Below are positions 10,001 to 49,443 of a DNA stretch of 64,000 bases, piece after piece. The notes beneath the pieces are model-generated. The model did not search any database. It was given only the letters and a program-made list of their open reading frames with translations, and was not told where the DNA came from. The position numbers were made by a program, and so were the translations under genes. Positions within the stretch are counted from its first letter, which is position 1, and each line of letters starts with the position of its first letter. This DNA comes from Nemertoderma westbladi (lineage: Eukaryota; Animalia; Xenacoelomorpha): assembly GCA_032718475.1 (NCBI GenBank), contig JAUCBJ010006943.1, positions 58,502 through 122,501 on the forward strand. The letters run 5' to 3'.

Positions 10001-10525
10001 TGTGGTATATGTGATATTACATTTGATAATCCTCATTCATTTGTAACAGAAGCTTGGTTCAGCCATTCAAGTATACCAGCTCATATAGATCGGCTGACAA
10101 GGGCCTTTCAAACAAATGGGAGACGGTATGTTGAGGCATTGCAATGCCAACTTATCAAACACTATGAATCTAAGCTTAGTCAAATACATCAGCAATGGGA
10201 TAATTTGACTTTTCCTGGAGGAATTAAGAAATCCATTAATAGTCCTGAGTTTGAAATGGCTAGGGATAAAACACATGCTATTAATTGGTGTGGAATATGT
10301 GATATAAACATGTATAATGTATCTGGCTATTTTATTTCACACTCTTGGATGCAACACACCCGTGAAGAAAACCATATCTCAAACTTGAGAGTTATTGAAT
10401 CAGAACATGGAATTAGAGGGCAGGCGTTTCTTTTAAAGTTGGAGGAGCAAATCACTGTTCACTTTATTGGCATTGAAACTAAGGCATTAAATGAATTAGC
10501 ACAGCTGAACATCTCTATAAGGTAG
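7040..10525 (+). CDS. 1161-aa protein with about nine dispersed U1/matrin(JAZ)-type C2H2 zinc fingers and an Arg/Ser/His-rich low-complexity segment; putative RNA-binding protein
   Basis: Uninterrupted 3.5-kb ORF in AT-rich DNA with repeated CxxC..WxxHxxxxxH motifs (e.g. CDLC..WSGHLQSMFH, CDFC..WKHHLQSALH, CVIC..WLKHQKTPQH, CGIC..WMQHTREENH) and an SRSRSYS/HRHH tract. Confidence 0.85.
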   Translation: MYGQEKFRYCDLCHFNVPNTDVYWSGHLQSMFHNERLRASQMHNTGQVFPMTPSQSQTVNPGWSGHMMRHPPPPLPSSLLSVGPQVSIKNIYSMQDTNTSWNRDKGGFEPMTSNFTNPGGSSNPSRDIQQTKCEVCNIFVETKLWSSHKSTNEHIYNSWKSLDNLYAEAKIESAKKFDLNTKQGGKFFSEDRNDCSEPMVACDNRISQLQPASHKLQPKNVQWEWNSKAMEFIPQQDNITKKLPIGGFNPRDTQISASKQSQKGDDSGTRLQSHTREEKKTNNAGHKTKKKSRSRSYSYGDRQRHRHSSSSSRHRHHTPTKSHHRGESRQDYKPKKSSRHEREEKPGKNKSIAKEDKNKKSILPHCKVTSTNEDEHVKNPSLESAVLPETTVTNKGQASKASYKVLFCIYCSDSILNIGDSEDPWKTHVQSEKHTESIESLGIIPEKAQPALVTAENSSVDSVYCESCDEVLHYIDIIPWQKHINGAAHKQKAIVFKNTDSPHHCDFCAVKVKKSLPQSWKHHLQSALHNSKTLMAFQSGRIPQCKVYQQYDNWYDIDRECLILDEGKSKDQVIGKEEQENASQTEQVDFKYEDKNNKIDNTVAEGIFRKKPSIYMNFQEKKVSKPNPKSEFTIESSMSVNKPLKSLNDGLKPDQNINITEGKPTEKKNTNPKVSIPPLVDYVSNKDVRAGKSFPNPRGQIEPNVKGPDFAHQKSTNGDAIVPSTSTLWPTDLQTGRYILHKVTGCVICDKLFEATHNWLKHQKTPQHKSRVLSLGRTAYGRKVNERASVQSQLIVEKLGIDVSTTSIAEIKKHASTSGIHPVFDPRSQNIIIHKINGCRICTCTFYRQTNWSMHKIRFLHLQVMDTIIDKVNAEEILSQLDTEYESYCETLDIPITEDKDYSLWMEKKLAKDKSNADKGEKVIRNAHGIPAVKSGQVKGLDFTTASKRQSAIVSETTRGVGAGGIHDRNICSDFVFPFGLVWKLNWCGICDITFDNPHSFVTEAWFSHSSIPAHIDRLTRAFQTNGRRYVEALQCQLIKHYESKLSQIHQQWDNLTFPGGIKKSINSPEFEMARDKTHAINWCGICDINMYNVSGYFISHSWMQHTREENHISNLRVIESEHGIRGQAFLLKLEEQITVHFIGIETKALNELAQLNISIR

Positions 10526-20952: not shown

Positions 20953-21288
20953 TCATCCTTTATCGTTCGTCGGTGTGTTCGTTTGGTCATTTGGCAGTCT
21001 GAGCCCAACTGTGGCTGCTGCCTTCTCCAAAGTGTATGACGTCCCGGAGAGTCGGTTGGTCGTTTGAATATCCTGTAATCGCTTGCTGTTGTCAAGGTAA
21101 CACAGATAGGTATCGGCGCGATATCTCATCTCCTTGTGCGCTCGACAGAGTTGGTCCTCCACAACTGCGTAGCGACGGAATTCCTTCCTCAGAAAAGCGA
21201 ACTGTTTAGTATCGCGATAAGAATGTTTCTCTTCAGCGGAAAGTTTTAAATGGTTTATCAGTTTTCGGTACACCGATCTAGCACCCAT
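20953..21288 (-). CDS. FMC1: FMC1 homolog (C7orf55-like; LYR-family mitochondrial ATP synthase assembly factor), 111 aa
   Basis: Motifs YRDT, LCRAHKEM, TYLCYL and AATVGLRLP and the length correspond to animal FMC1 (YRDT..LCRAQHE..TYLCLL..VGLKLP, from memory). Confidence 0.88.
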   Translation of the reverse strand: MGARSVYRKLINHLKLSAEEKHSYRDTKQFAFLRKEFRRYAVVEDQLCRAHKEMRYRADTYLCYLDNSKRLQDIQTTNRLSGTSYTLEKAAATVGLRLPNDQTNTPTNDKG

Positions 21289-23229
21289 AGCTGCAAAGTC
21301 AGATACGGTAGTTCAGTGACGAGATGATATACAGATATATGCTAGGTAGGTGGTCGTGGTAGGGTACATATCTTTACGTTGCCGTTACTGGTTACGTTAT
21401 TATATTAGTCCTTGAGTTTAGCAGTTACTGGCAGTACCGCCTACCAGCACCGGTACCTTATCAAAGGGGTTAGCTTATTCAATATTAACTTTTTATTACA
21501 TTGAACTAAGAAATAAGCCACTCTGGCAATAGAAAATACCTCGCAGTATTATTTTAGCCAATAGGCAGATAGACATTCATTGCAGTCTTCCTTCATATCG
21601 TAGATTCCCAGATAGGATGGTCCTGCGACTCCCGGGGTTGGACCTTCGACGCATTCAAATCCCCCGTCTATTCTAACGAGATACCGGCACCGCTTCACCC
21701 TCACAATTCCAAAGGTTTAGGTAGTATACTGTAGTCCTATGTTGTCGAGAACTGCTTCCAGTGGAATAGACTTGGAATTTAATTTCGCGAATATTTAAAT
21801 TCATTAATCACCTTTCAAGGTAATGTACTTTATTAAGGGAAAGGACTAGGTTACAGAGGCGGGATTTCCTACCCAAAACCTGTGATTAATTATATAAATA
21901 TGATGCTGATAATGTTGATAAATTGGGAAGCAACAGTATGTTGCTGAGGCGAACTTTGAGGAGATGTAGCCTTTGGTGTGGTGTTGTGTTGGTGAGGCCG
22001 ATGTGTTATGTGAATCGACAATTGCTTTGATAAAAACTTCAGTCCGTAGTAAACTACTCCGTAAATAAACCCAAGCGCACCAACTATACAAACAGTAAAT
22101 CATTATCATATCGTTGCCAACCTTTTGAATTCGCACTGCAATATAAAGACATCACGTACTGTAAAACTTAGGAAGTGGATTATTCGTAGGGAATATCAAG
22201 TTGGCACAGCACACTATCGATATATCATAATTATCTTCATTAATTTATTATAACGTAGGAAAAAATCTACTTTTATAATATTAATATTATTAATATCATT
22301 ATAAGATCAAAATATTATTTTGATAATTACAGTAATTATATATTTATTTATTTAGGTGTTACAATAAGATATCAGACAATAATTATCTTATATAAAACTC
22401 CCATGCAGTTAAAAAATGTTTACCGGTAAATGTAAAATTTAGAATAACACATACAGTAGAGTTCAAATGAATGGGTGCAATGTGCTGTATATTTTGTATG
22501 TGAGTGTGTTTTATGATATTGCGGGAAGATAGTAAGCCTACAAATTGCACCTGCTATTTGAAAAGTTATCATTCCAATCCATATTTTGAATTTCCATCGC
22601 AAAGTGCTGGGTAACAGAGATTGGTTAATAAATGACCAATTGGGAACGTCATGAAAATATGCAATAAAACATTAAAACAAGGAGATAATATTATAGCAAG
22701 GCTAATTAACATCTGACGTCTAAATACTTTACCAATAGTTATAAGGGGTACTGTAAGTATCACATATTACTTATGAACATAACTAAGGGGTTGATGCCTG
22801 GTTTGTACTGATGTTGCTTCTTATGCGCGCTTTAACGAATACTGTACAGTCAAACTGTCATCAACAAGATAATAATATGATATAAAACATGATGTAGCAT
22901 AGGCCTACAGTAAATTAGAATTAGCTTTTAAAAAAATTATCTTTTCTCGCTGCAGAAATCTGTCATCAACTTCAATTAATTAATTAATTCAGATAATTAA
23001 CATATTAATACCAGCAAGTTACTACAGCAATTACCATAGCAAATTAATATTATTACCCTGGCTACTGGAGGAATAGTATTTAAATAAAGTGTGAGCTCAA
23101 CCAACCTTCACTCTGCTACTGTATATATTTTAGGTAAAGTTCTTAAGGTTCAAATAGTTTATAATAGTTATAAATTATAAATAAAGGGTTTAAAAGCTTA
23201 TCTGAATATAAAACAAAGGCCACATTGCA

Positions 23230-24681
23230 ATGAATTTCTTGAAAAGTCTAGCAAAAGCTGTAGGTGATGATCGAGATTCGTTTAAAGGAGCGCCTAGAGG
23301 TGTGCAAGACGATGACGATGACGCCTTTGAGGAAAAGGCGAAGAATACCGTAGCAGCGGATGTACGTATGTTCAGTGGCTGCATGGACACTCAAACTAGC
23401 GCGGATGTTGGCGATGTGGCGTCGTTTGGTTTACCACCCGATGCTGGTCCAGGTGGCGCCGGTGGCGCTTGTACCAACGCGATGGTTCTTAATTTGTACG
23501 AAAATGACGGCAACTGCACTTGGCTCGAACTTCTCAGCTCCATGCAAGTCACCCTCAAAGAAAAGGGATTTACTCAAGTACCTCAAATATCTGCAAGTAG
23601 AAAAATATCTTTGGATGGAGAGTTTAACCTGGTCCATCCCGAAAGCAGTGGTCGCATGAGAGGTCTTTTAGTAGGTATTAATTATGTTGGGCAACAGGGT
23701 GAGCTACGCGGTTGTCACAACGACGTGGAACAGATGGCTGGTTTTATTGGTAATTATGGGTTTGATGACACCCAAATTCTCGTGGATGATGGCGAACATG
23801 ACGAACCAACTTACAGTAACATCATGGACGGGTTCAGGTGGTTGGTCTCCGATGCTGAACCAGGCGACTCGCTCTTCTTCCACTACAGTGGTCACGGGGG
23901 ATCAATGCCTGACGATTCCCAAGGTAAAAACTAACGTTCATTATAAATGTTTCATCTTATTTTATTTCAATGAATAGCCTACTGTAGTATCACCCTTTTC
24001 AGTCCTTAATAATTATACTTCAACAAATCTTAAATTTGTATAATTAATTTGTTATGGCAGCATAACCAATCAGCCTGATAGGCTTGTCAGTAATGTCAAC
24101 TCGTATTTCAAGTTGTAACAACACAAAAAAGTACAGTATACATTCAAAACCACCAGTTTCAATCCCCCAACTTGTAGGCCTACTGTAGGCTACTAATGAA
24201 GACTTATTAATACTGTATAATTTACAGTATTATCGCAATTATTAGTCATCCTCCATCGATAATTTTATTAATTTATGTAAATTTTTTATGTTTGTTTGTA
24301 GATGAGTCAGACGGCAAAGATGAAACGATGATACCGTTGGATTACATGTCATCGGGACAAATTCGGGACGACGAGATCTTCCGAGAGTTAGTGGCCCCGT
24401 TACCGGAAGGGGTTCAGTTGACCTGCGTCATGGATTGCTGCCATAGCGGCACTATTCTCGATCTCCCGTACAGCTTCGTCGCATCCGACGAGCGAATGGA
24501 GGCGGTGGCCGGTGGAGATGTCCCTCAGATGGCGCCCAACCCTGGATTTAGTTTCGCTAAAGTCCTCAAGGTCGGGATGCAGATGTTCAAGATGTACAAG
24601 GAAGGTTCGTCCACTGCGGATTTGGGAGCCGTTGCAGCTAAAGCATTCGGGTCAGATGCTTTATCTGCCTTTGGGTTTTGA
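23230..24681 (+). CDS. Type III (p10-p20 permuted) metacaspase, copy 1; exons 23230-23923 and 24302-24681, 357 aa
   Basis: N-terminal p10 motifs SGCMDTQTSAD, GGACT and FTQVPQIS precede p20 motifs GINY, LRGCHND, HYSGHG (catalytic His) and DCCHSG (catalytic Cys). A phase-1 GT-AG intron (23924-24301) restores DDSQ-D-ESDGKDET. Confidence 0.93.
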
Positions 24682-24916
24682 AGGAATGGATATAATCTAA
24701 TTGACTATATTATTATTGTACTGTATATAGGTAGAACAGAATATTTTATTTTTATTTTCTCTAAGCCAGTCGGTCTATTGGAGAGCTTGGGCTTCCAATC
24801 ACGAAGCCCTGGTTCGATTTACGAAACAGAGTGGAAGGTTTTACTTTTGAAAATGACCCAGGGTGATGAACTTAATATATTCCTTCTCTTAAAAGAGAGC
24901 CAAAAAGATTCTTTAC

Positions 24917-25360
24917 GGTGGTGATTTCTGGCCATTTTCTACTTTTTGAGTATTTTATTAGTAGTCTATTTTATTTTTTATTACATTATTATTATTTATT
25001 ATTACAATTTATTTTTTTTTTGTATTTTTTTTTCATTTTTTGAATAATGTTTCTTAAGATGTTTTCCTTGCAAAGTATCCTAATTTCGTCATTCGAATAG
25101 CCGTGATCAAAATAATCATGAAAAGCCTCTTCCATTGCAAAAATAGTAATCAGCAATTTAACACTGGTACAGTTCAATACACTTATTATAATAATAACAA
25201 CAAGTGAACAGTTAAGAAACTTTATGCAAAAATGAAAAAATACTCCCGAAAAAAAAGGAATAAAAATAAAATAATTTCGAAACAAATGAAAAAATACTTT
25301 CGAAAAAAGTAAAAAAAATACTCAAAAAGTAATAGGCCTAAATGTCCGGAAATCACCACC
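24917..25360. mobile_element. MITE (possibly Kolobok-like)
   Basis: TIRs GGTGGTGATTTC(T/C)GG plus an inverted ACTTTTTGAGTATTTT block; flanked by TTAC on the left and TTAA on the right. Confidence 0.6.
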
Positions 25361-26609
25361 TTAATTCTACCATTAATTTTCTTTATATTTTCTTTGTATT
25401 TGCTTTATTTGTGGTGGATTTCATTTTAGTTTCATTTGTATATATTTGAAAGTGTAAAATATTGTAAACTTAAAATATTAAAAGTATGGTTATTGTAATG
25501 GGTAATTATTATACTATACTCAATAATTACAGTACTGAATAATGAAATTAAATAATAATTAAATATAGGACACAGACTGTTTAAAATGGAATATCAACTA
25601 CAGTACGATTTTATGATACGCATATTACAAATGAACCATTCCTTGACACGCTCAAGTTTAGCGGAGCAACACCCTGCAGAATTTACTGTAAATTATTATT
25701 GTAAAAATTTATAGTACAGTAAGTTACGTTGGGGTGGCCTCAACAATTGAATAGCGATCCATATCCGTAGCAAGGAGAAATAGAGACATACTGTATTGTA
25801 GGCCTATTGTAGCGATTTTTTTCCTTATGTAAACAAGTGGACAATCCTGTTTGGTTAGAGTTGTTGGTGTTTAGAGCTGGAGATTCATCTGCTTTGTTGA
25901 CAGTGACATCATGGTTTGGGGGAAGTTCAACCCCAGTCTACAGTACAAACAATATAATAAAATTTGTGCTGCAATGGGTACAGAACTACTGTCTGTCACG
26001 ACACCTTTTGAATCTGGTGAGTGTTGCTAACCCAACTTTACGCGAGTAGGCCTACGACTTCCTGTATGGCATTTTGTCGAATGTAGAAATACACGCTCTC
26101 AATTTGTGGGTGTTAATTTAATTGGGGTGTAATTTGTTGTAAACGCTGCGACGACAACTGACAGAAGACAACCGATAACTACATCCGACTAACTGTTACT
26201 ACAGTACGAACAATAATTAAATCGTAACATGCGCCCTTGGCGTTTATTGTTTGTGATAGAAGAACGCGCCACTGTACACCTAACATGCTCCTTTCCCCTA
26301 ACCGTAAGAGTACTAACCTCAAGAGTAACCCTAAGAGTTGACAGTTGTCGGATGTCGGGTGTCACTGTCGGACATTCGACTCAGAGTTTACACACGATTC
26401 CGTGATATCATCACCAATAAATAAGAACCCGTATAAGAAGCAATACTAACTATCGGCTTACAATACAGTATAAATCAATCAACATCGAGTCGCCTGGACG
26501 CGGTTCCGTGTTCAGACATGGGTCTACCAGGTTGGAATGAAGGTTTGATGTTGGAGGGAAAAGCCGCCTGTGGAGCGATTCAAACAAACGCGATCCGCAA
26601 CTTTACTTT

Positions 26610-29600
26610 ACGAAGCACTTCAGTCAATGAATGAAGACCAATCCACCAATTCAATATACCAGAATATAATAACAGCCCACAAGGAATCAGCTAAGAGGCA
26701 TATCCCCCAGAAACCCAAACGAAAACAGTATGTGCCATTGCAAAACTCTGAGGTTTCTTGTAAGAGAGAAGATCTTAAGGTAGCCTACAAAGTTAAAACC
26801 GAACACCCAACAACGAACAACTAACAACCGAAAACATTAACAAGGTTGAGAAAGCTAAGGACGATCATAAATTGGCCTACAACATCAGCCAGGAAAAGTA
26901 CATACATGATAAAACTGAAACAATTACAACTGCTCACATACAGCAACAATCAAGACTTAACTGGCAAACTGTAAATGTACCTCATTTACAGTTTGCCAGT
27001 TAAGTCTTGATTGTTGATTCGGAAAAGTTGTGCAAATAAGGGGCGCCTCAAAGCCGATAGTCCTGAAGAACGTGTTGGGAAGTGGAAAAATCACTTCAGC
27101 AACTTGCTTGGGCAGCCACCAAACATCGAGGTCAGCCCTACAAGGAAAATATATGACAAGACACTACCTATAGAAACAGGGGACTTCACACCTGCCGAAC
27201 TCCAAAGAAGCATTAAAAGCATGTTCAATAATAAAGCGAGTGAATTAGATGGAATCCCAGCGGAGGTATGGAACACCGGAGTGCTAAACAGACCATTATT
27301 GAATGTTTGCAACCGGATGTTAAAAGGGGAAAAGCCACCACCAATTTGGACTAAAGGTCAACTAAAAGCCTCTCCCCAAGAAAGGAGACCTCGGCATACC
27401 AACAAACTATCGTGGGATCTGTCTGCTTGTGGTAGCTGCCAAAATATACAATAAAATGATTCTATATAGGATTAGGCCTCACATAGAGAAACTACTGCGT
27501 AAGAGCCTAAACGGATTTCGACCAAGTACTGTAGATCAACAATAGCTCAGATACTTGCACTACGGAGACTGATTGAAGGAATTAAGTCAAAGAATCTCCC
27601 CGCAGTCAAGACTTTTGTGGACTTCAAGAAGGCATTCGACTCCATCCATAGAGGTAAAATGCTTGAAATCCTAAGAGCTTATGGAATACCAGAAGTAATT
27701 GTTGCTGGCATTGGATTGTTATATTGTGACACAGAAGCGCAGGTACTCTCACCAGATGGTGAAACTGAGTTTTTCTCAATCCTGGCTGGGGTACTGCAAG
27801 GTGACACATTAGCACCATTACTATTTGTAATGGTGCTGGATTACGCAATGAGGACGGCCACAAAGGGTGAAGTTCTGGGATTCACACTTCAAGAACGCAG
27901 AAGTAGTAGATATCCGGCAACTACAGTCACAGACACAGACTTTGCGGATGACATCGCCCTGCTCTCTAATACGCTAGCAGATGCACAGCTTCTACTAAAT
28001 AAAGTTGAGAGGGCTGCTAAGGAGGTTGGATTGCATATAAATGCTACAAAGACAGAATTCATGACCTTTAATGTTGATGGAAACTCGACAACCATTGATA
28101 ATAATCATGTAAAAGCTTTTGCGGACATAACTAGTCATTTTTACGCAATGCGCAGAATACTCTAAAATAGCCCTAAAATTGTTCAACTACTGTATGCGTC
28201 GGAAGGAAATTAGAACCAAGATGACGAAATCTGTCAGCTGATTCTTTGTGTACGTGGAACTCTTTGTCCTAGCTTGTTCGGCCACTCAGAGCAATCTTCT
28301 CTGTTATACCAACGGAGACCCACCTGAGAACTAGCGCAATGCATTATGGTTATTATTTTTCTGAGAATTAGACGACTCTCAGAATTCTGTGCTTCTGTAC
28401 GGAAGTTTCAGACTTTAGCCCACGGAACATCTGATGGCTTTAGTTATAAGAACGTAAATCTATTAACAACCCACACCCAATTCTACTCAATATGACGCAT
28501 TGCACCAAACTGAACTTCATGAACACATACTGACTGTTCACCGCACTGTTTTACTGCTGTTTTATATTGTATTAATTGTTGTTTATATTAATGGATGTTA
28601 TATTTGGAGAATACCGATAAATAATCATAAACCCCTCAATCTTATTGATTACTGAGGTAAGCGGAGAAAGAGTCTACCGGTAGCAACTGCGACTTAAATT
28701 ATAGTGGTTTTGTGTGAATTAAATGCTATTTCATAATCCCTACGTGTGTCAGTTGCAATCCTCCTTATATATGATCAAATTCAGTGACGGTCGGCAAATT
28801 AGTGTGAAATAGTGTAAAGTAGTGTGAAGTCGTGTGAAGTCGTGTGAAGGTTAATAAAGCATCTCCTAAAGAATGCGCTATTTACGAAACTCTGTGGCCA
28901 TCTAGTTGTGATTAGTATAAGTCATAACTCTGTTTTAGTACTTAAAGCGCCACGTCCTAAAGGAACTGTTAATATTTCCCCGAAAGTAAATATAGTTGTC
29001 AGAGATTATATAGTAGCGATCAATCGAATAATACAAAGTAGCTTACACCGCAATACTTCCTAAGGAACCTGAATCCAGTCTCCCACACCGTGGGTCATAC
29101 GCCGCGCACGGACTGGCTTCGGCAGATGTAACTTCAGTACACCAGGTAATTGGTAAGGGCTAAAGTCGATTCATAAACAAAAGGACAATTAAAATTGGCA
29201 GGTTAAACTGCTAAAGGTCTAAAAGCGCGAACAAATCAACTAAGGAAGGTCGATGACTTCCAGTACCTTGGATCATGGATAGAGAGTAGCAAAAAGGACA
29301 TAGAAGTTAGGAAAGCAAAGGCTTAGGTTGCTCTAGCAAAAATGGATACCATCAGGAAATCAGATCTCTCCAGGCACCTGAAGACTAAGTTCTTTCGAGC
29401 CACAGTGGAAAGTGTGTTTTTACACGGGGGTGAGACCTGGATACTGACTAAATCACTTGAACAACGAATTGATGGTTGCTGCACAAGACTACTAAGGGCA
29501 GCCCTAAACATCAGCTGGCGACAACACATGACAAACGCCGAGCTTTATGGTACAATACCACCTGTATCAACCACCCTCCGTGAACGCAGATTAAGATTCA

Positions 29601-29760
29601 GTGGGCACTGCTGGCGAAGTAAAGACGAGGTCATACCAGATCTACTTCTCTGGCAACCAACTCATGGAAAGCGTAGGCCCTAGTCGTGGACAACCGGCCA
29701 TAACATATATATAGATAAACTTGAAAGGGATACTGAACTTGGGAGAAATAAAATTGGGAC
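26610..29760 (+). mobile_element. Decayed RTE-like LINE (RT region to C-terminus) split by a solo LTR
   Basis: ORF fragments DGIPAEVW, DFKKAFDSIHR, GVLQGDTLAPLLF, DFADD and RLRFSGHCWRS; the frame resumes after the insertion (IDNN-QLRKVDDFQYLGSWI). Confidence 0.88.
28108..29233. mobile_element. Solo LTR (1126 bp) with 5-bp TSD
   Basis: Starts TGT and ends ACA; AATCA is duplicated at 28103-28107 and 29234-29238; removing it restores the LINE reading frame. Confidence 0.85.
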
Positions 29761-31148
29761 AACTATACGGTTGTAAATACTAAAATACTGAATTATTATA
29801 TGTAATATGTACATTATTATCTTTCTGAGTTTGTTATCCATCCATATGGTATTCTACTGTATTTGCCCGTTTTGGTGCGGGTATGGGCATGGGGGCTGCT
29901 GGGGCTGAAATAAATCGTTGCCCCCGGGCTCAAATAACCTCTTGGCTATTTTATACTGTAGTAGGCCTACACTTTGCTCCACCCTTGTTTCCAACGGGCA
30001 ATACTGTATAAACTGTAGAGTGGTGCCAATGAGTTCCAGATGGATTGTCTAAAAAAGTAGGATAATTATTGATATACCGTACCGTCTGTCTGTCCCAACT
30101 ATCCGTGGACTCTGACGTGTTGTCTCAAGAATCAGCACGGTCGTTGTGTTTAAGTGTTTAGGCGGAGACAGAATTGTTATTACAGTTCGCTATCCGGATT
30201 AAAACAATTTGTTCGATTGCCAACAAACTAATGGTATCCCGTATTTAGTGGATATTATTTATATTGTACTTACAGTATATACCAGTGTTATTGGTAGGCC
30301 TATTTCGGTATTTTATTCAAATTGAAATTTAACAGTTCCTTCTATTTTCTATTATTGCTGATACATAAATGTATAGGTATTATTGTGGCGGACTATTTTA
30401 GCTTTCTGTACTTCTTGTGGCGGCCTCGTATATGTTTGCAAATTTTCAGCTCAGGAGGATAAATATCAAATATAAAAGGGGGAGGGGGGCATATTATACA
30501 GTCCGACACAAATAATAACCATATAAATAAATAAATAAGGCTTCGGTTTAGCCCTCCACTTCTTCTCCTCCCAACACCCCCCCCCCCCCCCCCCCCCCCT
30601 CACCCACCTCACAAAACGAATTATCCTTCTCACCACATGGTGTCGCACAACATTAAAGTGGCAAAGAATAACATGTGGATTTTATACTGCTTCCTGCTGT
30701 GTAAGAGCTGTATTCCTGATCCTGAGTTAATGCCAAGATTAAACACCAGTTTAATACATTGGTATTCTCCTTCATGACTGCCTTCTTATATTACCTAATT
30801 CACCGTTTAGGCCTGCTGGACAATATAGCAATAGTTATTGCCAAAATTCCGATATTAAAGTTTTAGGAATTGTCACAGAATTCTAGTTAACGGAATCTTC
30901 TACAGGAATATTTTAGTTGGCGTTAATCAATATCAGTACCGCACTGTATATTACATACACCCTACTGCTCTATCCTGTATAACTATGTTCATATTTTAAT
31001 TAAATATAATTGCAATATTAATTAATACGTTCTGATACTTTATTGATAAGTTTGCTGATCGTGATATTGTCAAACCTCACAACTACTACTTATTTTTATA
31101 CGTCACAGAAGTTCCCCATAGTGAATCGATATTCTCCGAGAATCCATC

Positions 31149-32735
31149 ATGGATTTTTTAAACAGTCTGGCGGAGCTGATTGGGGACGACCCTAACTCGT
31201 ATAGAGGAGCCCCGAGAGGCCAACGGGATCCCGATAACGCATCCTACGAAGAGAAAGTAAAGAAATCAGTGAGGGCGGATGTACGTATGTTCAGTGGCTG
31301 CATGGACACTCAAACTAGCGCGGATGTTGGAAACGTGGCGACGTTTGGTTTGCCACCCGATGCTGGGCCTGGTGGCGCCGGTGGCGCTTGTACCAACGCA
31401 ATGATTCTTTCTCTGTATCAAAATGGTGGAAACTGCACGTGGCTCGAACTACTTAGAGCTATGCAAATTACTCTTAAACAAAAAGGATTTAGTCAAGTTC
31501 CACAAATTTCAGCGAGTAGAAAGATATCTTTGAATGGGCAATTTAACCTCGTTCACCCCAGAACCAATGGGCGTACGAAGGCGCTATTAATTGGTATTAA
31601 TTACGTCGGCCAACAAGGTCAGCTTCGTGGTTGTCATAATGACGTAAAACAGATGTGTGGGTTTATAGGGAATTACGGGTTTGGAGATATGAAAATCCTA
31701 ATGGATGACGGGGGTCACGAGCAACCCACTTACCGAAGTATAATCAACGGGTTTAGATGGCTGGTGTCTGGGGCTGCTCCCGGGGATTCCCTATTCTTCC
31801 ATTACAGTGGACATGGCGGGTCGGTTCCAGATGATGATGGAGGTAGGCCTATTACTAATTATTTATTTATGTTATTTTTCTTTATTTTATACAGTAGTAG
31901 TTTAATTAGTTTCTACTTATCGCGTGTAATCTTTGCAGACGTAAATAAACAAAACAGCATGCGGAAAATAGGAATGTAGAAAGTGTCAATTTATTGATAT
32001 CTAAGAAGTCCATCGATATAAAAGCAGTCCATAAGATTGATACTGTATTATTGGCAAATGATACTTGATTATTGATAATTGACTATTTTCGCAAGCGAGT
32101 GGGTATGCATTGTATTGCACAAAGTGCGATACGTCCATTAGTTTCTTGTTAATATCATTTTTTTCTATTTTATAGACGAAGCGGACGGCATGGATGAGAC
32201 GATGATACCGTTGGATTACATGTCATCGGGACAAATTCGGGACGACGAGATCTTCCGAGAGTTAGTGGCCCCGTTACCGGAAGGGGTTCAGTTGACCTGC
32301 GTCATGGATTGCTGCCATAGCGGCACTATTCTCGATCTCCCGTACAGCTTCGTCGCGTCCGAGTCCGAAATGCACGCGGTGGCAGGTGGCGCCACGCCGC
32401 AGATGACCCCCAATCCGGGGTTTAGTTTCGCCAAGGTTCTCAAGGTCGGCATGCAGATGTTCCAGATGTACCAAGGTGGGGCGTCGACCGCGAGCATTGG
32501 CATGGCGGCGGCGCAGGCATTCGGACCCGACGCCCTCGCCGCCTTCACCGGTGGTGGGAGTGGAGGTCACGGAGCCTACGGAGGTGACCATGGTGGTGGA
32601 TCCCATGGTGGTGGATCCCATGGTGGTGGATCGCATGGTGGTGGATCCCATGGAAGCAGTTCACATGGGGGAGGAGGCCATGGTGGGCTGGCACATGGTT
32701 TGTTAAAGTTGGGAAAAAAACTTGCAAAATTTTGA
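31149..32735 (+). CDS. Type III metacaspase, copy 2, with a Gly/His-rich tail; exons 31149-31842 and 32176-32735, 417 aa
   Basis: Same motif order and intact His/Cys dyad. Exon 1 is 694 nt as in copy 1; a phase-1 GT-AG intron (31843-32175) gives DDDG-D-EADGMDET. Confidence 0.93.
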
Positions 32736-35646
32736 AATAGTAGGCCTACAGAGAGTATAGTACAGTACTTGGACATCAAACTGAATTTGTTAAAAAAACA
32801 TTTTGGATAACATTTTGTATTTCTGTTTCATAATCGTCGTGTTAAATAATACATATTACATTGTTATATGCTACTGTATAAAGTTTTTATATGGCTTCAT
32901 ATAGGCTCGGTTGCGTGATACAGTACAGTACAGTACTGTAAACTGTTTAATGTGGACTAACTTAAGCAGGATCTCTGGCTATCCAATATACCCTTGAGAA
33001 TGAGATGGGTGGGCCTGAGACACAACCCACAACAGATTTCTGTTATTCACGTTTAAAACTCATCTTGGTGTGAATGCGTCTAGAATATGTGGGTCTACAG
33101 TGCTATGCTTGAGGCAGCTAATCTACAGTAATAATTGGTAAAACGTGAAACCTAGTTTATTTTTGAACAAAATTAAAAAGTTCGTACGATAAATGTCTTT
33201 ATCACATGTTCTCACTTATTTTTAGCGGTTGATATATTGTATATCACACCGTGTGAAATACAGTTAGCTACAGTATATTCAAAAATTATTTGAAACTTGT
33301 ATTACTAATTAATTGAGTTTTTTTAATTACAAAAAATGATATACTAGCTAGATTTTGCTATTTTTAATATTTTGTGTAGGCCCTACACAATGTTCGATAT
33401 TAAAAAAACATTTACATCTACATTTTTTTTTTTTTGACTTTTACTCTATTAGTCTGAACGCGGCCTTAGGTGGTGTATAATAATTAATCGTTCCCCTGTG
33501 TTTAAAATATAATCAAGATATTTTTCCAAAATATGTTCTGGAATAAAAAATATTTGTAACTGAGGGTTAATTTTTTCAAAAATAAATAGCTAGCATATTC
33601 TAGAACGATTTCTACACAAAAAGCAACAAGTACTAGCTATAATAAAAAAAATTGGAGAGGAAAATACTAAATTGTGGAGCGGGTTGGCTGTACCTTATTA
33701 TGCAGGATGGCCCTCTTCGTGTTCAATAAGTTCAAACACATGTGATAAACAGAATATCACCTGTTCTAGGAGTGATATACGATATATCAACCTGAAGCAA
33801 ATAAACTTGTATATATAACTCACCGAGGCCGAAGGCCGAGGTTGTTATACAAAGTTTATTTGCTGAAGGTGAAAGATTATTTATATTTTATAAAGATTAT
33901 TTGCTGAAGGAAGGTATTTACTCTCTGTATATACAGTATCTGTTGTTTGTATCAATCATTATTTATCAAAATTCATCCCTCTCTTGAGGAAAATCAAAGC
34001 AATTAACCAGCTATGATTACTCCCACAAATTAAACTGTAACCTACACCATAACCCTTAATACAACAACCGTTTTTGGCGGGTCGGAGCGCCCCCCCCCCC
34101 CCCCCACCCCCCCCCCCCCCTAATTTTTTTTCAAATTTCAATAATATGCTACGAAATTCGGTATGATGATAAATCGACACCTTTTCTTATTGGTGGCCTG
34201 GCGGGATTTTTCAATTTCTCAGTTATTTTCATACAACAAGTCCATAAAAAATGTCTATTTAGCAATGTTTAACCACCTTCGTAGACTTTATTTTACGTCT
34301 TTGGAATGTAATCGGGATACCATTAGAACCGCCTTCGTCTGTAGAATCCGAATATAAAAACCGTTTTAAATTTAACCAAAAATTGGTAAAGATATTATCA
34401 AAATACTAATGTGTAAATTTAGAGACGTAAATCGCTATAATTCTGATTTTTTTGTTGTCTTTATTTTAGAATATTTGTGACGGGATCAGGGGATCCCGAC
34501 CGGTGAATTAAGTTACGCGTCACCGCGTTGTTGGAAAGAAGATAGTTTGTTGTTGTTATTGTCTTGATATTGTTATAGATTAACGGTAATGAGATGATAG
34601 CACGGTAATATAGATAATGCAGTTGCAGTACAGCAGTAATGAGATAATCTGACAGTAACGGTGACGGTACAAAATGTCACTGGTCCCCACTGTGTGACTG
34701 AGATGACTGAAAGGGGCACAAGCACTAACCGGTAATATATATTGATACCTACTTTACTTGTGGCCTTATTTACTTAGCGGATGCATTTCCTGGCTCTGAT
34801 TGGCCAATAACCTCATTCTCGGCTCTCACCTCTGTGGGAGTGTCTTCCCCCCTCGCTGCTGTCACTTTCCTCTCCCGGAGGTTTAACCTCTGACCTCCCT
34901 TTGTGTGGCCCTTCGGGGTTTGTTGTCCCCGTTTATTGGGTGTGTGATACGAGGTTAATTGGGTAGATTAACCTCGTATCCCCAATATTGCTTAAAGGCG
35001 CCACTTCCCAACTTTATGGGGGTTGGTGAGGCGGAATTGAATCCGCTCACACTCCCCCCCATGCTATCTTCCCGGTGAGAAGATAGCATCAACCTCTCAG
35101 TGCGCTTCAATTCCGCTGGAAACCCGATCTACTATCGGGTGTGGGGTGGAGTTCTCTTACCTTGGAGTCGGCTTCCCAGGCCGCTCCCTCTGGGTATGAT
35201 GTTGCTACCCTCTCTTGGTGCAACCGCAACCTATGTTGCACCAAGACATCTGGCGTCTCGGTTTCGAGACAATTGTGGATTCTCACACAATTTTAAAAGC
35301 TCTCTCTCTCAACTCTGACTTCTCACTCTAACTCTCACTCTAACTCCACTCTAACTCCGCTCTGTTCTCTCCCCACACCTGAATCGCACTCGTCCGCACT
35401 CTCTCTCGCCAGCAGCTCCTCTCCATACTCCTCTCATACTGCCCTCAAAGGCGCTAAGTTCTTATGCTACCCCTGTGCTATCATTCTATCTACCTACTAC
35501 TTACTTACTAACTACTTACTATCTAACTCTAATTCTACTAACTCTCTACACTCTACTAACTCTACTAACTCCTCTAAGTCTACTTAACTCTCTTAAGTCT
35601 ACTAACTCTCTAGAACTCTCTGACTCTACCCACTCTTCTAACTATC

Positions 35647-36435: not shown

Positions 36436-37323
36436 TCAACCGGACCGGCGTCTCTTCCGGACACTCCTCTGGACACTCCTCCGGACACTCCTCCGACACT
36501 CCTCCGGACACTCCTCCGGACACTCCTCCGGGTTGTCCTCCGGACATCTCGCCGTCCGCTCCTCTCCATCCCCATACCGATACTTGCTGGGACCCTTGTT
36601 CCATCCCATTGCCTCTAAGTCTTCCGCGTCAAATCCATTCTCCTCCGCCCACTCTCCTACTGTTACTTCCCCGTCTGGCTCATCTACCATCTCCGGTTTC
36701 TTCTCTTCGTCCTCTGCGTCTACGGTGCCTGGTAACATGCACCCTGATGTCTCCGTCACCCTGGATGGAATCTTGGTTTTAACTGGGCCGCTAAGCGTCC
36801 ATCCGAACGGCGTGAGGATCGCCGTCGGATCCCGCTGTCTGTCTTCGCCGAAGACCGTCTGCATTCTCTCGTGGGCCGTCGGGCAGTCCATTCCTACTAT
36901 AATGGATACCTTCCTAACGTCCACCTCTGGTATTGAGAAATCGATACTGTCCAGGAATCTATATTGTTCGACCTCAATGTTGGTTGGTCGCCTGGCGTTG
37001 ATATTTATCGATTCTATCACCTGGATGGGGTCGATGGTCGCCCCATAATCGCATCCCGGTGCTATCGCTGCTATCTTGCACCGCCCCGTCCTCATCTCCA
37101 GGACCTCATCCTTACTTGAGACGGTAGTTACCGCCATCCTATTCGGCCTCGTCTTTAGCCCTATCTCTTCGGCCACCCAATTCTCCACCAGCGTGAAGGC
37201 TGCTCCGCTGTCGACCAGCATTAGTGTTGTGACTGATCGGCCGCCTCGTCCTGTTATCTTCACTGGTACTACCCCGAGTAGTACTTTCCTCTTTCTTCTT
37301 ACTCCTGTCGTGCTTGTAGCCAT
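36436..37323 (-). CDS. BEL/Pao aspartic protease region (truncated pol)
   Basis: VVPVKI..LVDSGAAFTLV catalytic motif, IIVGMD and TPFGWTLSGP. Confidence 0.8.
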   Translation of the reverse strand: MATSTTGVRRKRKVLLGVVPVKITGRGGRSVTTLMLVDSGAAFTLVENWVAEEIGLKTRPNRMAVTTVSSKDEVLEMRTGRCKIAAIAPGCDYGATIDPIQVIESININARRPTNIEVEQYRFLDSIDFSIPEVDVRKVSIIVGMDCPTAHERMQTVFGEDRQRDPTAILTPFGWTLSGPVKTKIPSRVTETSGCMLPGTVDAEDEEKKPEMVDEPDGEVTVGEWAEENGFDAEDLEAMGWNKGPSKYRYGDGEERTARCPEDNPEECPEECPEECRRSVRRSVQRSVRKRRRSG

Positions 37324-37329
37324 TGTTTG

Positions 37330-38646
37330 GCCTCCAGTCTCATCGTCTCTATTGCTGTTTCTCTACACTCTCCGGATCTGTGTCCTTCTACCACACATCG
37401 ATGACATAGTCCGTTTGCGTCTGTGTAGGCTATACGATCTTGTTTGGGCAACGCTTGCCAGTGCTTACAACTCATGGTCTTATGGGTTCCGTCCCGATGT
37501 AATTGACATTCGAATCCTGGATTATAGCGTTCCCTGTATAGTCCTTCACGTATCGCGCGTAGGTTTATATCTACCTGATTTAGTGTTTTGGTTATCTAGA
37601 CTCGGCCTACTGGGTATGTTGGGATTATGTTTATTTGTGGTGTTATTTTCTTTCTGTCCCTGCCACGGTGTGGCCCTACTCCCAGCTAACTGTGGGCTTG
37701 TAGCCCCCTGTGTGGCCGCGTGTGGTAGCGACTGTCTTACTCTCGGGAATGGATCTGCAGGATTGTGTTCGGGTTTAGGCCTGTTGTATTCGGTCTTTGG
37801 CGCCTTCCCCAAACTATCCTCACTATAGACTGGGTCTGTAATCAACTCTGCTTCGTAGTTGAGGAAGTTTGACATTTCCTCTAGCCCTGGCTCCGCACCT
37901 TTCTTCTCCCGAGTGGAGAAGGCGATCTTCCTCCACTTGCTCCGCAGCCAGATCGGCAGTGCCTGCGCTATCGTGGTGATGTTATTAGATGCGTTGAGTT
38001 CGTATGGCGCGTCTAGCGTCTTCAGCACGATTAACGCCTTCTCGACTTTGTTCGCAAACGTCTTTATGCTAACGGGGTTATCCTGTAGGCCACCCGATGT
38101 TATACCCCTCAGGGTTTGCCGGATGATCTTGGCTGGGTGTCCGTATTCCCTGTCTAGGGCCCGCCATGCAGTCGTGAAGCCGCCCTCGATGCCCTGATAC
38201 TGCCTCACGATGTCGTACGCTGGGCCTCCTGTATATACCTGTAGATATTTTAGGCACTCCGCCTGCGTCAAGTTCTTACTTAATATCTCGTTGCTGTACA
38301 TGCGCCGAAATTGCAGGTATTCTTCCGGCCTACTTCCGTCGAATTTAAATGGCTCGACTGGTGGTAACTCGATCCTGGTCTTTAGTGCATCGATTAGTGT
38401 CGCCATTCCCATTGCCTGTGCTTCCAATGGGTTCGAAGGATGCTGTACAGATTCTCCTGTTGGGTGCGGTCCGCCCGTCGGGCCTGTTGACTCTCTCTGT
38501 CTCGGATATATCATTGGGGGTAACGGCCCCCTCCATATTTCCGTGTCGCACAACCTGTTCTCGTCCAGGGGGTTCGATGTTCTTATTCCTGTTTGAGTGT
38601 ATTGTTGATATTGTAATGGGAGAATGTCACCCTGCTGTGACCCCAC
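37330..38646 (-). pseudogene. BEL/Pao gag: ORF 37546-38646 plus frameshifted zinc knuckles
   Basis: FKFDGS..YLQF..LKYL..GPAYDIV..AWRALDREYG is Pao gag-like; another frame at ~37360-37510 reads CQLHRDGTHKTMSC and LCHRCVVEGHRSGEC. Confidence 0.8.
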
Positions 38647-39680
38647 TGACTCCCTAACTCCATCTGTACTATCGACAGCTCGCTATCTGTCCTCGCTCTC
38701 CGGTTACTCCTAGAAACGATTCTTCTATTATTCTCTTCACTTCTTCTCTCTTCGACCTCTCGGTTAAACTCTACTAATCTTCTTCTCTCTTCTGACTGGG
38801 CTCGACGTCTCGTCGCTCACCCACTCTCGGCGTTAACATCTGACTCTACTCTGTCCGGCTGGACCCTCCTGGGGACACTCACCATCCCCCTACTATTCTC
38901 CGTCGTCGGGTGCTGCGGTTCACCTAACTTGCCCCGCGCATTATCCGCCGACGCCTGTGGGACATTCTCTGCCCCCCCCCCCTTCTCGCTACTAATCTCT
39001 CGTGGTGGGGCGCCCGTAGCCCCCCCCCCCCCCCCCCACCCGTCACTTCTTACTTCACTATCTCTCACTTCACTTCTATGTCCCCCTTGTGGGACATTCT
39101 CTGCCCCCCTTCTCTCGCCACTAATCTTCCGTGGTGGGGTGCCCGTAGCCCCCCCCCCCCCCCCCACTCGCCACTTCTTACTTCACTACCTCTTACTTCG
39201 CTTCTACACCCCTCTCTAGTCGGCCGGACTACCTGTGTCTACATTAGTATTAATAGCGCCGTTGTCAATATTATTATTTAAATTATTTAAATTAGAATTA
39301 TTATTATTTTCTAAATTTAAATTATTGTTGAATTATTTCCTATATTTGAATTTAAATTATTCGGATTATTTTGAATATTTGAATTAGAATTATTATTTGA
39401 ATTATTTATATTTAAATTTACATTAGACTACCAGGATAAAGGGTTATTTTCTGCAATAAAAGTTTGATTAGGGTTGTCTACTACGGTACTATTAATATTA
39501 ACGTTTTCTACTGTATTGTTATTACCCCCCCCCCCCCCCCGCCTGTACGGTTACACCAGTTCTGGTTCTGTCGCCTGGTGCCTATAAGTGGGGTATTAAC
39601 AAACGTTTCCACTACTTCTGGCTCCTCGTAAATACTACCCGAGCCAGCCTCACTCTCTGATAGTCCCAACTGCGCCAGTT

Positions 39681-43559: not shown

Positions 43560-46500
43560 TACTCTGAGGGGTCGGATACTCTTGAGACATCCACTAAGGG
43601 CGTGATTACGGCACAGATTCGGGAGATCTGTGCTCTCAACCCAACTACGGACGAACTGAAGGCGCATGTCACCCTCAACTCTACTCGCTTGCAGTAACGG
43701 CGGAAAGCAACCCTCCTCGAGATCTTCGAGCTGCTACTTCTGAAGACTATTGACGAAGAGGCTGCCGAACTTCTTTCCGATGAGATGGAGTCGGAACGGG
43801 ACCACATCCTCGAGGCTGAACTCCACCTCGATCAGCTTCGAGGGCTGCTCTCCGTCGACGACCCGCCTTCTCCCGCCGACTGCGACTCAGTTGCGCCCTG
43901 TACTTCTGGTGTTGAGGCCCTTCTGTCAGCTTCGACTCTCCCGAAACTGTCTCTCCCCATTCTCTGGCGATCCCCTGGATTGGAGACAGTTCCACGACCT
44001 AGTTCATCACGCTTGTCGACTTCGATAAGTCTACTGTTTCACCTGCTGCCAAGTTCGTTCATCTGAAGAACTGCCTCTGTGGTCCCGCTCTTGCCGCCGT
44101 GCAGGGCATCAAGTGTGGTGGCGGAGCCTATGCCACTACCACTCAGGAACTGATTTCGCGGTTCGGGCAACCGAACGTTCTGATCGCACTCCACAGCCAG
44201 CGGATTGTGAATGCCCCAGCGGTCGCGACCGACAAACAGGACCAGTTACAAACTTTAGTGGACACCTTCTCTTCCTCTATTCGGGAGTTAGAGTCTCTCT
44301 TCGAAGAAGCAGAGAAAACCGGACTCAACGGGGACCGAGCCCCGTGCGCCTTCTCTACGAAGCTAGCTGGGCTCCTCCTGGCCACGCAGCTGCTCTCAAA
44401 ACTGCCCAAGTCGATCGTCCTGGAGTGGATCCGTAGGAACACCGAGCCTACAGGATGTCACAACCTGGAAGCACTACTAGATTTCCTAAAAACCGAACTG
44501 GAGGGCCTGGAATCGTATCGACGCTTGGGTGAGCTGCCCAGACGCGTTGACAACCCGTCTACGAACCCCAAACCAGCTGCACGCAAACCTTCGGTTACCT
44601 TCTCTTCCAAAACGCTGCGCGCCCCTGCGGCCATTCGCTCACAGAATCTCTGCACTAACTGCCTGGCGTCGGGCCACTACGTTTCTGACTGCCCCCAACC
44701 GCCCAACTGCAGGACTTGCTCTCAGAAGCACCATGGACTTACTTACGAGCTTACTTCCCCTCCTGGGGGATTCTCTAGAGTCGGCTCGTTTGCCCCGTCG
44801 GGTGGATGCTGAACAGCCCACTCTGCATTGTCACATCCTCCCATGGATCCCTCGGTGCCCGAATTCCAACCGCCCTGGTAAAGACTACCGTGGCTTGCCG
44901 ATGAACGGATACCGCCCACCTGCAGACTGCTGTGGTGACTGCGAGCGACCCCTGCCGAACTACTACTAGGAGGATCAGACTCCTCCTCGACACCGGCTCG
45001 GAGGAGTCTTATATAACTTCCGAGCTCGCTTCCTTTCTCGGGCTGAGGGTCCGGGATACGGCTTCCTTTGCCTCCGAGGCGTTCGGTGGCATTGTCTCAC
45101 CCACCCTGGATCACTGCCAGGTGGACCTTCTGCTCAGCAAGGGCAACTCTTCCCTCGGCATGACAGCCTGGGTAGTTGACACCCAGCGAGTAACTATAGT
45201 CGAGTCCCCCCGCGCCGACTCACTCCCAACCATCTCGAAGGACTCAAGCAGCTTGAGTCCCTGGGGTACACCGAGAGACTAGCGTCTCCACCCCCCACTG
45301 CTTACTTCTTGCTGCACCATGCCGTGGTGCAGCATGGAAAGAGACGAATTGTCTTCGACGGTGCCTGGAAGTCGCCCAAAGGCCTCTCCATCAACAACTG
45401 TCTGAAGACAGGTCCGAACCTCCTCCCGCTACTCTTCAATGTCACCCTGCGATTCCACGTCTACCCCTGTGTGGCCTTATGGGACATCGTCAAAGCGTTC
45501 CACCAGATCTCTATCGCCAACCGTGTGTACCTCTGCATACGGTGGCGTGATGAGGAGGGGGAGGTTGTGAGCTACTTCGTTCGCCTTCCGTTTGGACTCA
45601 ACTGCTCCCCGAGTGCCCTCCAGTCCACCCTGTGAGTCCTGTTCGGCCTGCCTGCGGACGCTGCTTCGGCCCCAGCATTGCCGAGCTCGTCTGCTGATGA
45701 GACCCCGGTCAGTGACCCCTCGGTCATTGACCCCTTGGTCGCCTACTGAGCCGAACTGAGTGGAGGTCAACGAACCCCATCTGCAAAGGGGAGTACTGGG
45801 AATTCCATGGGACCCTGTTGCCGACAAAATCTCAGTCAACCTTGACAATGTCGCCCTGTCTAAGGTGTTCACTAAGAGGTCCTTACTGGCCTGCACCACC
45901 TCCATCTTTGACCCCCTGGGTCTCCTCTCCCCTTGGACGCTTTCTCTGCGCTTGCAACTGCAGGCAGCCTGGCACACTGGCTCTGGGTGGGACCATCCAC
46001 TAGACCCTTCTGCCATGAGCATCTGTGTGAATTTCCTCTCCCGCATACCTACGAACCCACCTGCCGTACCCCGGAACTGCTCGTACCCAGACCGTATCGA
46101 GGTCTACGTCGATGCTTTGCCCAAAGCCTACGCGGCTTGTCTCTACACACTGCAGGATGGTGTGTGGACTCTGCTTTGCACCAAAGCACGCACTGCGCCA
46201 CGGCGGCCTGACTTTCGATACCTTGTCTGGAGCTGATGGCGGCTCTGCTGGGAACACGTCTGTATGTATCCGTCCTCAAGGCACACGAAGACCTCCCTGG
46301 GGTCAACGCCCACTTCTATTCGGACTCTACGATAACCCTCGCCTGGCTGAGTAAGCCTTCTGTAACCTGGAAAACCTTTGTGCGCAACCAGGTGGGCGAG
46401 ATCCAGCTCCACGTACCCTCCTATCTTTGGTCCCACATACCAGGGAGTCTGAACCCAGCGGACTTCGCTACCCACGGGTTCGACCTCGTCGATCTTAGCG

Positions 46501-48470: not shown

Positions 48471-48627
48471 ATATAGAGCATTATTTTGCAGTATTGCATG
48501 TACAGATGTAGGTATAAAGGTATTTTAGGTATTTTAGTACCGGTACCGGCACCGGTACTGCGGCGCTGTAGGCCTACTGTGTAGCCAACCATTTAAATAC
48601 GGTACTGGTAGGCCTACCGGCTGACCG

Positions 48628-49443
48628 GTTGTTTTGGTTAGAAAATCAAGCCTCTGTAACCTGCTCCTTTCCCTGATTTGGTAAAGTGACCGTGTATTGT
48701 TTTGGTTAGAAAGGCCCGCCTCTGTAACCTGCTCCTTATTTCCTTCATTTTGTAAAGTGACTGTTTATTGTTTTGTTTAGAAAATCCCGCCTCTGTAACC
48801 TGCCCCTTTTCCCTCAATTAGTTAAAGTGATCGTTTATTGTTTTGGTTAGTAAATCCCGCCTCTGTAATCTGCTCCTTTCTCTCAATTGGTAATGTTATC
48901 GTTTATTGTTTTGGTTAGAAAATCCCGTCTCTGTAACCTGCTTCTTTCCCTGATTTGGTAAAGTGACTGTTTGTTCGTTTTGGTTAGAAAATCCCGCCTC
49001 TGTAACCTGCTCCTTTCTCTCAATTGGTAATGTTATTGTTTATTGTTTTGGTTAGAAAATCCCGTCTCTGTAACCTGCTTCTTTCCCTGATTTGGTAAAG
49101 TGACTGTTTATTGTTTTGGTTAGAAAATCCCGCCTCTGTAACCTGCTCCTTTCTCTCATGGTAATGTTATCGTTTATTGTTTTGGTTAGAAAATCCCGTC
49201 TCTGTAACCTGCTCCTTTCCCTGATTTGTTAAAGTGACTGTTTATTGTTTTGGTTAGAAAATCCCGCCTCTGTAACCCGCTCCTTTCCCTCAATTAGTTA
49301 AATAATCGTTTATTGTTTTGGTTAGAAAGGCCCGCCTCTGTAACCTGCTCCTTTCCTTCATTTGGTAAAGTGACTGTTTATTGTTTGGGTTAGAAAATCC
49401 GGCCTTAACCTGCTCCTTTCCATCAATTGGTAATTGTTTTTGG
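48628..49443. repeat. Minisatellite of about 12 copies of a ~68-nt unit
   Basis: TTGTTTTGGTTAGAAAATCCCGCCTCTGTAACCTGCTCCTTT recurs every ~68 nt. Confidence 0.92.

Follow-up and report, generated by a model that had tools for sequence, protein, structure and literature searches.

Tandem, spliced genes for type III metacaspases in a genome that is probably animal, with a candidate origin by transfer from a protist

Gene content of the locus

We analyzed a 64,000-nt stretch of contig JAUCBJ010006943.1 (hereafter the window; all coordinates are positions within this whole stretch). This DNA carries two tandem genes, referred to below as gene 1 and gene 2, that encode metacaspases of type III. Four sequencing runs are named throughout. 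Runs X1 and X2 are possible sources of the window DNA, X3 comes from the sample of X2, and X4 belongs to a study not flagged as a possible source, its label of "DNA?" being a guess. None of the listed runs is labelled RNA. Both metacaspase genes are real and intact, and they are composed of the following parts:

23230..23923, + strand: gene 1 exon 1, with the N-terminal segment, p10 and the first half of p20 including the catalytic His222 (Pfam, structure alignment, motifs)
23924..24301, + strand: gene 1 intron of 378 bp with GT..AG ends, splitting the codon of Asp232 in phase 1; an X4 contig joins across it, and it carries window-enriched motifs
24302..24681, + strand: gene 1 exon 2, with the acidic loop, the catalytic Cys278 and C-terminal helices; product of 357 amino acids (aa)
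31149..31842, + strand: gene 2 exon 1 (Pfam, paralog alignment)
31843..32175, + strand: gene 2 intron, 333 bp, GT..AG, phase 1, in the same codon; X4 joint
32176..32735, + strand: gene 2 exon 2; product of 417 aa, whose tail has Gly/His-rich repeats (about 32574-32708) and ends in a cationic amphipathic segment

The two proteins are identical at 276 of 357 aligned positions. A first-pass annotation of this DNA had described two intact genes with p10 motifs ahead of p20 motifs and a common GT-AG intron at the same codon and phase, with intron sequences that could not be aligned. Our analysis agrees with this description on each point. All of the motifs listed there occur at identical residue numbers in both proteins, and both introns are in phase 1 and split the codon of Asp232, which is the first residue of the DExDGxDE loop. 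The introns share short local matches only, the best of which spans 29 nt at 79% identity, near the 5′ and 3′ ends. That annotation did not include two features described below: tracts of probable gene conversion shared by the paralogs, and a tail of the gene 2 product that is rich in Gly and His.

Assignment to type III metacaspases

The Pfam family Peptidase_C14 matched the two first exons with 81 and 85 bits (cut-off 21.4). Residues 38-136 correspond to the C-terminal p10 of Trypanosoma MCA2 (4afp, chain 265-358), and residues 137-225 correspond to the p20 part of the same structure (chain 87-181). These swapped matches reveal a permuted order with p10 before p20, which is given as the defining trait of type III metacaspases (PMC3734836). 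Both proteins also display SGCxDxQTSADV at residues 49-60, described as the p10 consensus of type III (PMC3734836).

The catalytic dyad is intact, with His222 in HYSGHG and Cys278 in DxCH, a motif reported as the metacaspase type (PMC5756287). Cys278 aligns with the Cys-to-Ala position of the active-site mutants 4afr and 4f6p. The motifs GCxND, DExDGxDE, DD and DxCHS are all present, as they are in 143-193 of 195 type III relatives. By analogy with TbMCA2, these acidic residues would make up the S1 specificity pocket and the Ca2+ sites. The diatom 2-Cys subtype of type III is redox-regulated through a Cys pair, C202 and C259 in PtMCA-IIIc. In the present pair, Cys273 precedes the catalytic Cys by five residues, the same spacing as that of C259. 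Gene 1 has no Cys between residues 162 and 273, and a partner to C202 of PtMCA-IIIc seems to be absent.

Phylogenetic trees separated types I and III with supports of 100/97 and 96, placing the pair with type III; a third rooted tree put a single long-branched viral type I row among type III. The nearest folds to a model of exon 1 only (predicted local distance difference test score, pLDDT, of 78) were metacaspases, while true caspases matched weakly. Pfam detected no death, CARD or Ig domains in either protein. An identity as animal caspases or paracaspases was ruled out by the domain order, the DxCH motif and the lack of death and Ig domains. The pair are type III metacaspases.

Splicing, selection and gene conversion

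In X4, contigs leave out precisely the 378 and 333 bases of the two introns, with GT..AG ends, whereas these joints have a depth of 0 in X1-X3. We infer that X4 is RNA and hence that the joints represent splicing; intronless DNA copies are a less likely explanation for them. With X4 so understood, there would be RNA over both exon junctions, a check that the first-pass annotation had proposed. X4 also provided no cover of the unique intergenic bins 25510-26577 and 29782-30849, which fits an RNA library and was not used as evidence. For the two other organisms of the study of X4 the word share was 0.00, a value that carries no weight.

Between the paralogs, nonsynonymous divergence (dN) was 0.135 and synonymous divergence (dS) was 1.24, a ratio of 0.11 over 355 codons. 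Outside of two identical tracts, the proportion of synonymous differences (pS) was 0.79, which is saturated, and dN was 0.18. Saturated synonymous sites combined with low dN point to an old duplication under purifying selection. These values indicate strong purifying selection on both genes, in agreement with the earlier proposal that the gene had been retained and duplicated. The identical tracts are:

24325..24482, + strand: 158 bp over the catalytic Cys motif, the same in 32199-32356; probable gene conversion
23356..23411, + strand: 56 bp over the p10 signature, the same in 31275-31330; probable gene conversion

The chance of finding zero synonymous differences in the 158-bp tract is about 5e-19 given the background. 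Short-read unitigs of several runs break inside the tracts, which shows that the tract identity is present in the reads. We attribute the tracts to gene conversion between the paralogs.

Taxonomic identity of the host

Three features of the window served as host markers:

20953..21288, - strand: intronless gene for an FMC1 (C7orf55) homolog of 111 aa, lying head to head with gene 1 (HMMER library search, name look-up)
36436..38682, - strand: remnants of BEL/Pao gag (DUF1759) and aspartyl protease (Pfam)
44003..46236, + strand: second set of BEL/Pao remnants (DUF1759, zinc knuckle, Peptidase_A17; Pfam)

The FMC1 open reading frame (ORF) had 68 relatives in the HMMER library, the best of them at 31-39% identity, and no Pfam match, no word-index match and no meaningful match in the PDB. 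Among its 10 best clusters six were named, and all six were animal FMC1/C7orf55 (mosquito, clam, Trichinella, crayfish, caecilian and lamprey). In the Atlas, plant FMC1 clusters score equally by features. The first-pass description of this gene as metazoan-type therefore stands with regard to its best named matches, but FMC1 is not an animal-only family. The BEL/Pao elements claimed in the same annotation were both recovered by Pfam, with DUF1759 and Peptidase_A17 domains at 37.5-38.7 kb and 44-46.2 kb. These elements are called metazoan in the abstract of PMC3118150, where the passages covered do not state exclusivity.

Judged from one short, divergent gene and from transposons, the host is most likely an animal, and it would belong to a fast-evolving or poorly sampled lineage. 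Two further ORFs were found in the window. An intronless, AT-rich C2H2 zinc-finger array gene lies at 52676-53920 (+ strand), with 8 zf-C2H2 stretches and a GC content at third codon positions (GC3) of 0.32. A single-exon ORF of about 1160 aa at 7040-10525 (+ strand) has repeated zinc-finger-like CxxC...H...H motifs and no Pfam family above the cut-off; it is possibly a lineage-specific nucleic-acid-binding protein.

Integration in the host chromosome

The space between the two metacaspase genes is occupied by mobile elements. A long interspersed nuclear element (LINE), a long terminal repeat (LTR) insertion and a miniature inverted-repeat transposable element (MITE) had been reported there, and all three element types were found:

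24913..25364, no strand: MITE-like element with terminal inverted repeats
26617..29683, + strand: degenerate LINE with reverse transcriptase (Pfam); a related copy lies at about 2.9-5.6 kb
28108..29233, no strand: solo-LTR-like TG..CA insert of 1126 bp within the LINE, having a target duplication of 5 bp

The 28108-29233 insert is missing from other copies of the LINE. Contig depths added up across the LINE reach very high values, which are no measure of copy number. A perfect 34-bp inverted repeat with a 5-bp spacer is also found inside this LINE, at 26944-27016.

The start codon of FMC1 lies 1942 bp upstream of gene 1, matching the distance of about 2 kb given before. One X1 contig covers 20654-23385 with zero differences and joins FMC1 to the start of gene 1; in X2, the same interval is covered by two contigs with a 43-bp gap. 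The depth of X1 contigs changes little from FMC1 through gene 1 into the 3′ flank of gene 1 (25, 23.2, 22.9 and 24.8). Part or all of 20.8-24.8 kb is present in 5 of the 8 listed runs, which come from three studies under one species label and include 2 flagged as possible sources. In addition, two short motifs mark the window. Under a second-order Markov model, the palindrome TAGGCCTA was seen 28 times against 0.7 expected (about 40-fold), and TACTGTA was seen 90 times against 16.8 expected (about 5-fold). Both motifs occur in both introns and in the flanks. Contamination is unlikely because of the contig that joins FMC1 and gene 1, the window-signature motifs in the introns and the elements between the genes. 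The genes are integrated in a repeat-rich host chromosome.

Depth over 30613-33227 is roughly half that of gene 1 in X1 and X3, and not in X2. A tandem array with a unit of about 65-70 bp is located at 48620-49450, and a 48-bp piece of it occurs in reverse at 21832-21879, between FMC1 and gene 1.

Relatives of the metacaspase pair

Two homolog searches were conducted. The first returned 768 matches, of which the best 120 were listed (34 with an organism name), and the second, among longer proteins, returned 253 matches, of which the best 120 were listed (11 with an organism name). The best 120 of the 768 included 109 full type III and 8 partial sequences. Among the matches listed, the best identity of the pair to protist type III enzymes was 61-62%, to a protein of the cryptophyte Hemiselmis. 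The named matches (45 of the 240 listed) derived from algae (cryptophytes, brown algae, other ochrophytes, diatoms, haptophytes and a prasinophyte) and from further protists (labyrinthulids, dinoflagellates, euglenids, diplonemids and kinetoplastids). The first-pass annotation had considered that orthologs might prove to be broadly distributed in opisthokonts; among these 45 named of 240 listed matches, no animal, fungal or other amorphean type III enzyme was found.

This spectrum of organisms makes the "algal" donor of the first-pass annotation too narrow, since the matches include heterotrophic euglenids, diplonemids, a bodonid and labyrinthulids. Nothing that was found points to a symbiont donor, which it had also suggested. 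Judged from these sequences, the range of type III is wider than the published one of secondary-plastid algae. The sequences outside the published range are P0018, P0025, P0096, P0087, P0110, P0112, P0114, P0067, P0026, P0027 and P0053, and dinoflagellates are also among the type III matches beyond it. The numbered sequences come from heterotrophic euglenids, from diplonemids and a bodonid, from labyrinthulids and from the prasinophyte Cymbomonas; transcriptome contamination is possible for any of them. Several protist proteins had more than one metacaspase domain per chain (P0211-P0214, P0227, P0242, P0253, P0257 and P0259).

The pair was always monophyletic in trees. When type I sequences were used as outgroups, it was placed among ochrophytes and cryptophytes with supports of 94, 86/84 and 86. 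Meanwhile, euglenids branched first in the rooted trees. We also compared the intron site with that of protist genes, as had been proposed for the donor lineage. Out of 17 metagenome type III loci, 12 were readable and 5 unresolved; none of the 12 has an intron at this site, and 8 of them have introns elsewhere. The empty site fits an intron gained in the host before the duplication, the true donor not being among the sampled protists.

Origin of the genes and competing explanations

Based on these results, we favor as the likelier account that two intact, spliced tandem type III genes of a likely animal host descend from a single old transfer from a marine protist and encode predicted Ca2+-activated Arg/Lys proteases. 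Horizontal transfer into the host lineage, taken as a claim by itself, is probable. The first-pass annotation had already proposed it, and the patchy distribution of the family favors the proposal, while the phylogeny does so in part: the best trees nest the pair within type III as was anticipated, but approximately unbiased (AU) tests (44 of 84 rows, with long branches and near-redundant rows dropped) do not reject an arrangement in which the 35 protist type III rows form one group that excludes the pair (p = 0.172 under LG+G4 and 0.329 under a mixture model). Because of these tests, transfer is argued here from the patchy distribution and not from the tree. Several other observations likewise weigh against our account. 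The 116-row tree (6 fragments left out of 122 rows) has no resolved sister to the pair, no donor nearer than about 62% identity occurs among the matches listed, and 195 of the 240 listed matches come without an organism name, so that sequences of animals or other amorpheans could be among them. In the FMC1 tree (58 of the 68 matches used), the window gene sits on a long branch (0.81), at 34% identity or less in the alignment, with no supported placement. The bridging X1 contig is not independent of the organism of the assembly, X1 being a possible source, and no short-read contig of X1-X4 crosses the LINE between genes 1 and 2. Contig depth of gene 2 in X1 is 14.6 and 9.4, below gene 1, and it is also lower in X3; heterozygosity or presence/absence variation is a possible cause. 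Finally, the "DNA?" label of X4 is guessed, so that its reading as RNA rests on inference.

Some of these observations would suit other explanations. The AU tests, the first-branching euglenids and the occurrence of type III in euglenids, diplonemids, a bodonid, labyrinthulids, dinoflagellates and a prasinophyte speak for ancient vertical retention, with an early eukaryotic type III enzyme lost in nearly all amorphean lineages and kept in this animal line. Such a history is improbable, as it requires many independent losses and as no amorphean type III enzyme occurs among the 45 named matches. Moreover, in each of the three rooted best trees the pair lies deep within ochrophyte or cryptophyte rows, and it has ~60% identity to protist enzymes against ~35% for FMC1 to animals, two families that differ in rate. 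The host could instead be a repeat-rich protist or alga with native type III metacaspases, in keeping with the equal scores of plant FMC1-like clusters, the highly divergent and unplaced FMC1 and the finding of no further phylogenetically informative host gene in the window. We hold this to be quite improbable in view of the six animal names out of six among the 10 best FMC1 clusters, the two BEL/Pao elements (called metazoan in PMC3118150) and the AT-rich zinc-finger array gene at 52.7-53.9 kb. The FMC1 phylogeny, which had been suggested as a means of placing the host, did not do so, and the host phylum is left unfixed because plant clusters score equally and the FMC1 branch is long and unplaced. 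Contamination or a chimeric assembly, in which protist DNA from food or a symbiont was joined to animal sequence, would explain why no short-read contig spans the whole stretch, the link of gene 2 to gene 1 across the LINE resting on the window assembly. It is nonetheless very remote, as FMC1 and gene 1 are linked by one contig and have similar depth, the 20.8-24.8 kb stretch recurs in three studies under one species label, both introns carry the signature motifs of the window and the conversion tracts tie gene 2 to gene 1. A giant virus might also have carried the gene, leaving an endogenous viral element in place of a direct transfer from a protist, and giant viruses do have many metacaspases, as seen in an Atlas cluster of 745 members that is 95% viral and, separately, in 270 viral stretches. 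However, the best 80 viral loci comprised 72 of type I order, 4 undetermined and 4 with tandem type I genes, identities in the best segments were 32-49% and the window showed no viral neighbours, which makes a viral carrier very improbable. An apparent permuted order at 4 giant-virus loci was rejected, as these are tandem type I genes (2 of the 4 were read, and the other two have the same coordinates).

Proposed history, mechanism and role

Under our preferred account of transfer from a protist, a protist gene would have entered the germ line horizontally and gained one intron, at a position where the protist genes sampled have none. A tandem duplication would have followed, old enough for synonymous sites to be saturated now, and transposons would then have inserted between the copies. 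Recurrent gene conversion would keep a segment of the active-site exon identical while the termini diverge.

The type III enzymes GtMC2 and PtMCA-IIIc are reported to be Ca2+-dependent, to autoprocess near the N-terminus and to cut after basic residues (PMC5756287, PMC8455989). By analogy, the pair very probably shares this biochemistry. The monomeric zymogen is expected to bind Ca2+ in the acidic loop of p20 and in p10, as in these two enzymes, and to remove its N-terminal segment at basic residues, for which Lys/Arg 36-46 are candidates. The active enzyme would then cleave cytosolic substrates after Arg or Lys. A signal peptide or membrane helix was ruled out on hydropathy alone (maximum 19-residue mean of about 1.1), and the products are predicted to be cytosolic.

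Since such enzymes need high Ca2+, we favor a role in the response to membrane damage, wounding or infection, alongside the Asp-specific caspases of the host. This assignment, drawn by analogy, is tentative, and we rank it ahead of housekeeping proteolysis as the most likely role. In a housekeeping role, enzymes of the same origin would clear aggregates or process specific substrates. The non-death roles described for yeast and trypanosome metacaspases (PMC3734836) and the representation of both genes in an apparently unchallenged run speak for it, whereas gene 2, with its cationic Gly/His tail, gives a hint of defence; we regard housekeeping as rather unlikely.

This tail comprises 61 residues, including 29 Gly and 9 His, and its final amphipathic segment has a net charge of +4. 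None of the 195 type III relatives has at least 2 HGG repeats in the tail. It may resemble Gly/His-rich antimicrobial peptides. More speculatively, the pair might have been domesticated as a second, caspase-independent, Ca2+-triggered protease for damage and defence, with copy 2 having acquired a tail that the enzyme would release as a putative antimicrobial or metal-binding peptide by a candidate cut after Lys318 or Lys321. We consider this scenario unlikely.

Comparison with known systems

The closest known systems are the type III enzymes GtMC2 of Guillardia theta and PtMCA-IIIc/PtMC5 of Phaeodactylum (PF00656; PMC3734836, PMC5756287, PMC8455989). They have in common with the pair the p10-before-p20 order, SGCxDxQTSADV, the HYSGHG/DxCHS dyad and the acidic loop. 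Unlike them, the pair resides in a probable animal genome and has its intron at a site that is empty in 12 readable protist loci, and gene 2 carries a His-Gly repeat tail. The best PDB matches by sequence and by exon-1 fold are the type I enzymes Trypanosoma MCA2 (4afp/4afr) and yeast Yca1 (4f6o), in which the catalytic Cys aligns; these structures have the opposite order to the pair, with p20 followed by p10. Animal caspases and paracaspases (MALT1) share the caspase-haemoglobinase fold and the His/Cys dyad with it. The pair is without the QACRG-type signature of caspases.

Metacaspases are stated to be absent from animals, and type III to be known from secondary-plastid algae (PMC5756287). 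The claim of the first-pass annotation that animals lack metacaspases agrees with this statement and has an exception in bdelloid rotifers, which are reported to have a horizontally acquired metacaspase of apparent fungal origin that is up-regulated against a fungal pathogen (PMC11258130). That enzyme is likewise of non-animal origin in an animal, and it differs by its apparent fungal source and by being presumably of type I. Bdelloid rotifers are also animals known for massive gene uptake. The genes described here thus belong to a known enzyme family in an unexpected host, and they have a precedent among animals as metacaspases.

For type III, the mostly open literature that was covered yielded no report from an animal; the supplements of PMC13342648, a compendium of metazoan horizontal gene transfer (HGT), may list such genes. 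None of the listed papers on type III metacaspases concerned an animal by title or abstract start, and none paired a metacaspase with an acoel. A bivalve caspase study reported only metazoan-type sequences, and PMC10959488 has metacaspases only in a reference.

If our account is correct, the pair would represent the transfer of a protease of a cell-death family from a protist to an animal that has kept, duplicated and spliced the gene. It would also offer a natural test of metacaspase function beside true caspases, and would bear on the dispute over death versus housekeeping roles. Meanwhile, type III sequences in plastid-lacking euglenozoans and labyrinthulids question the published link to secondary endosymbiosis, and the first-branching position of euglenids in the rooted trees likewise questions an origin of type III in that event. 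As a minor observation, two giant-virus contigs encode two tandem type I metacaspase genes each, at 2335-4380 of L001 and 2512-4088 of L058.

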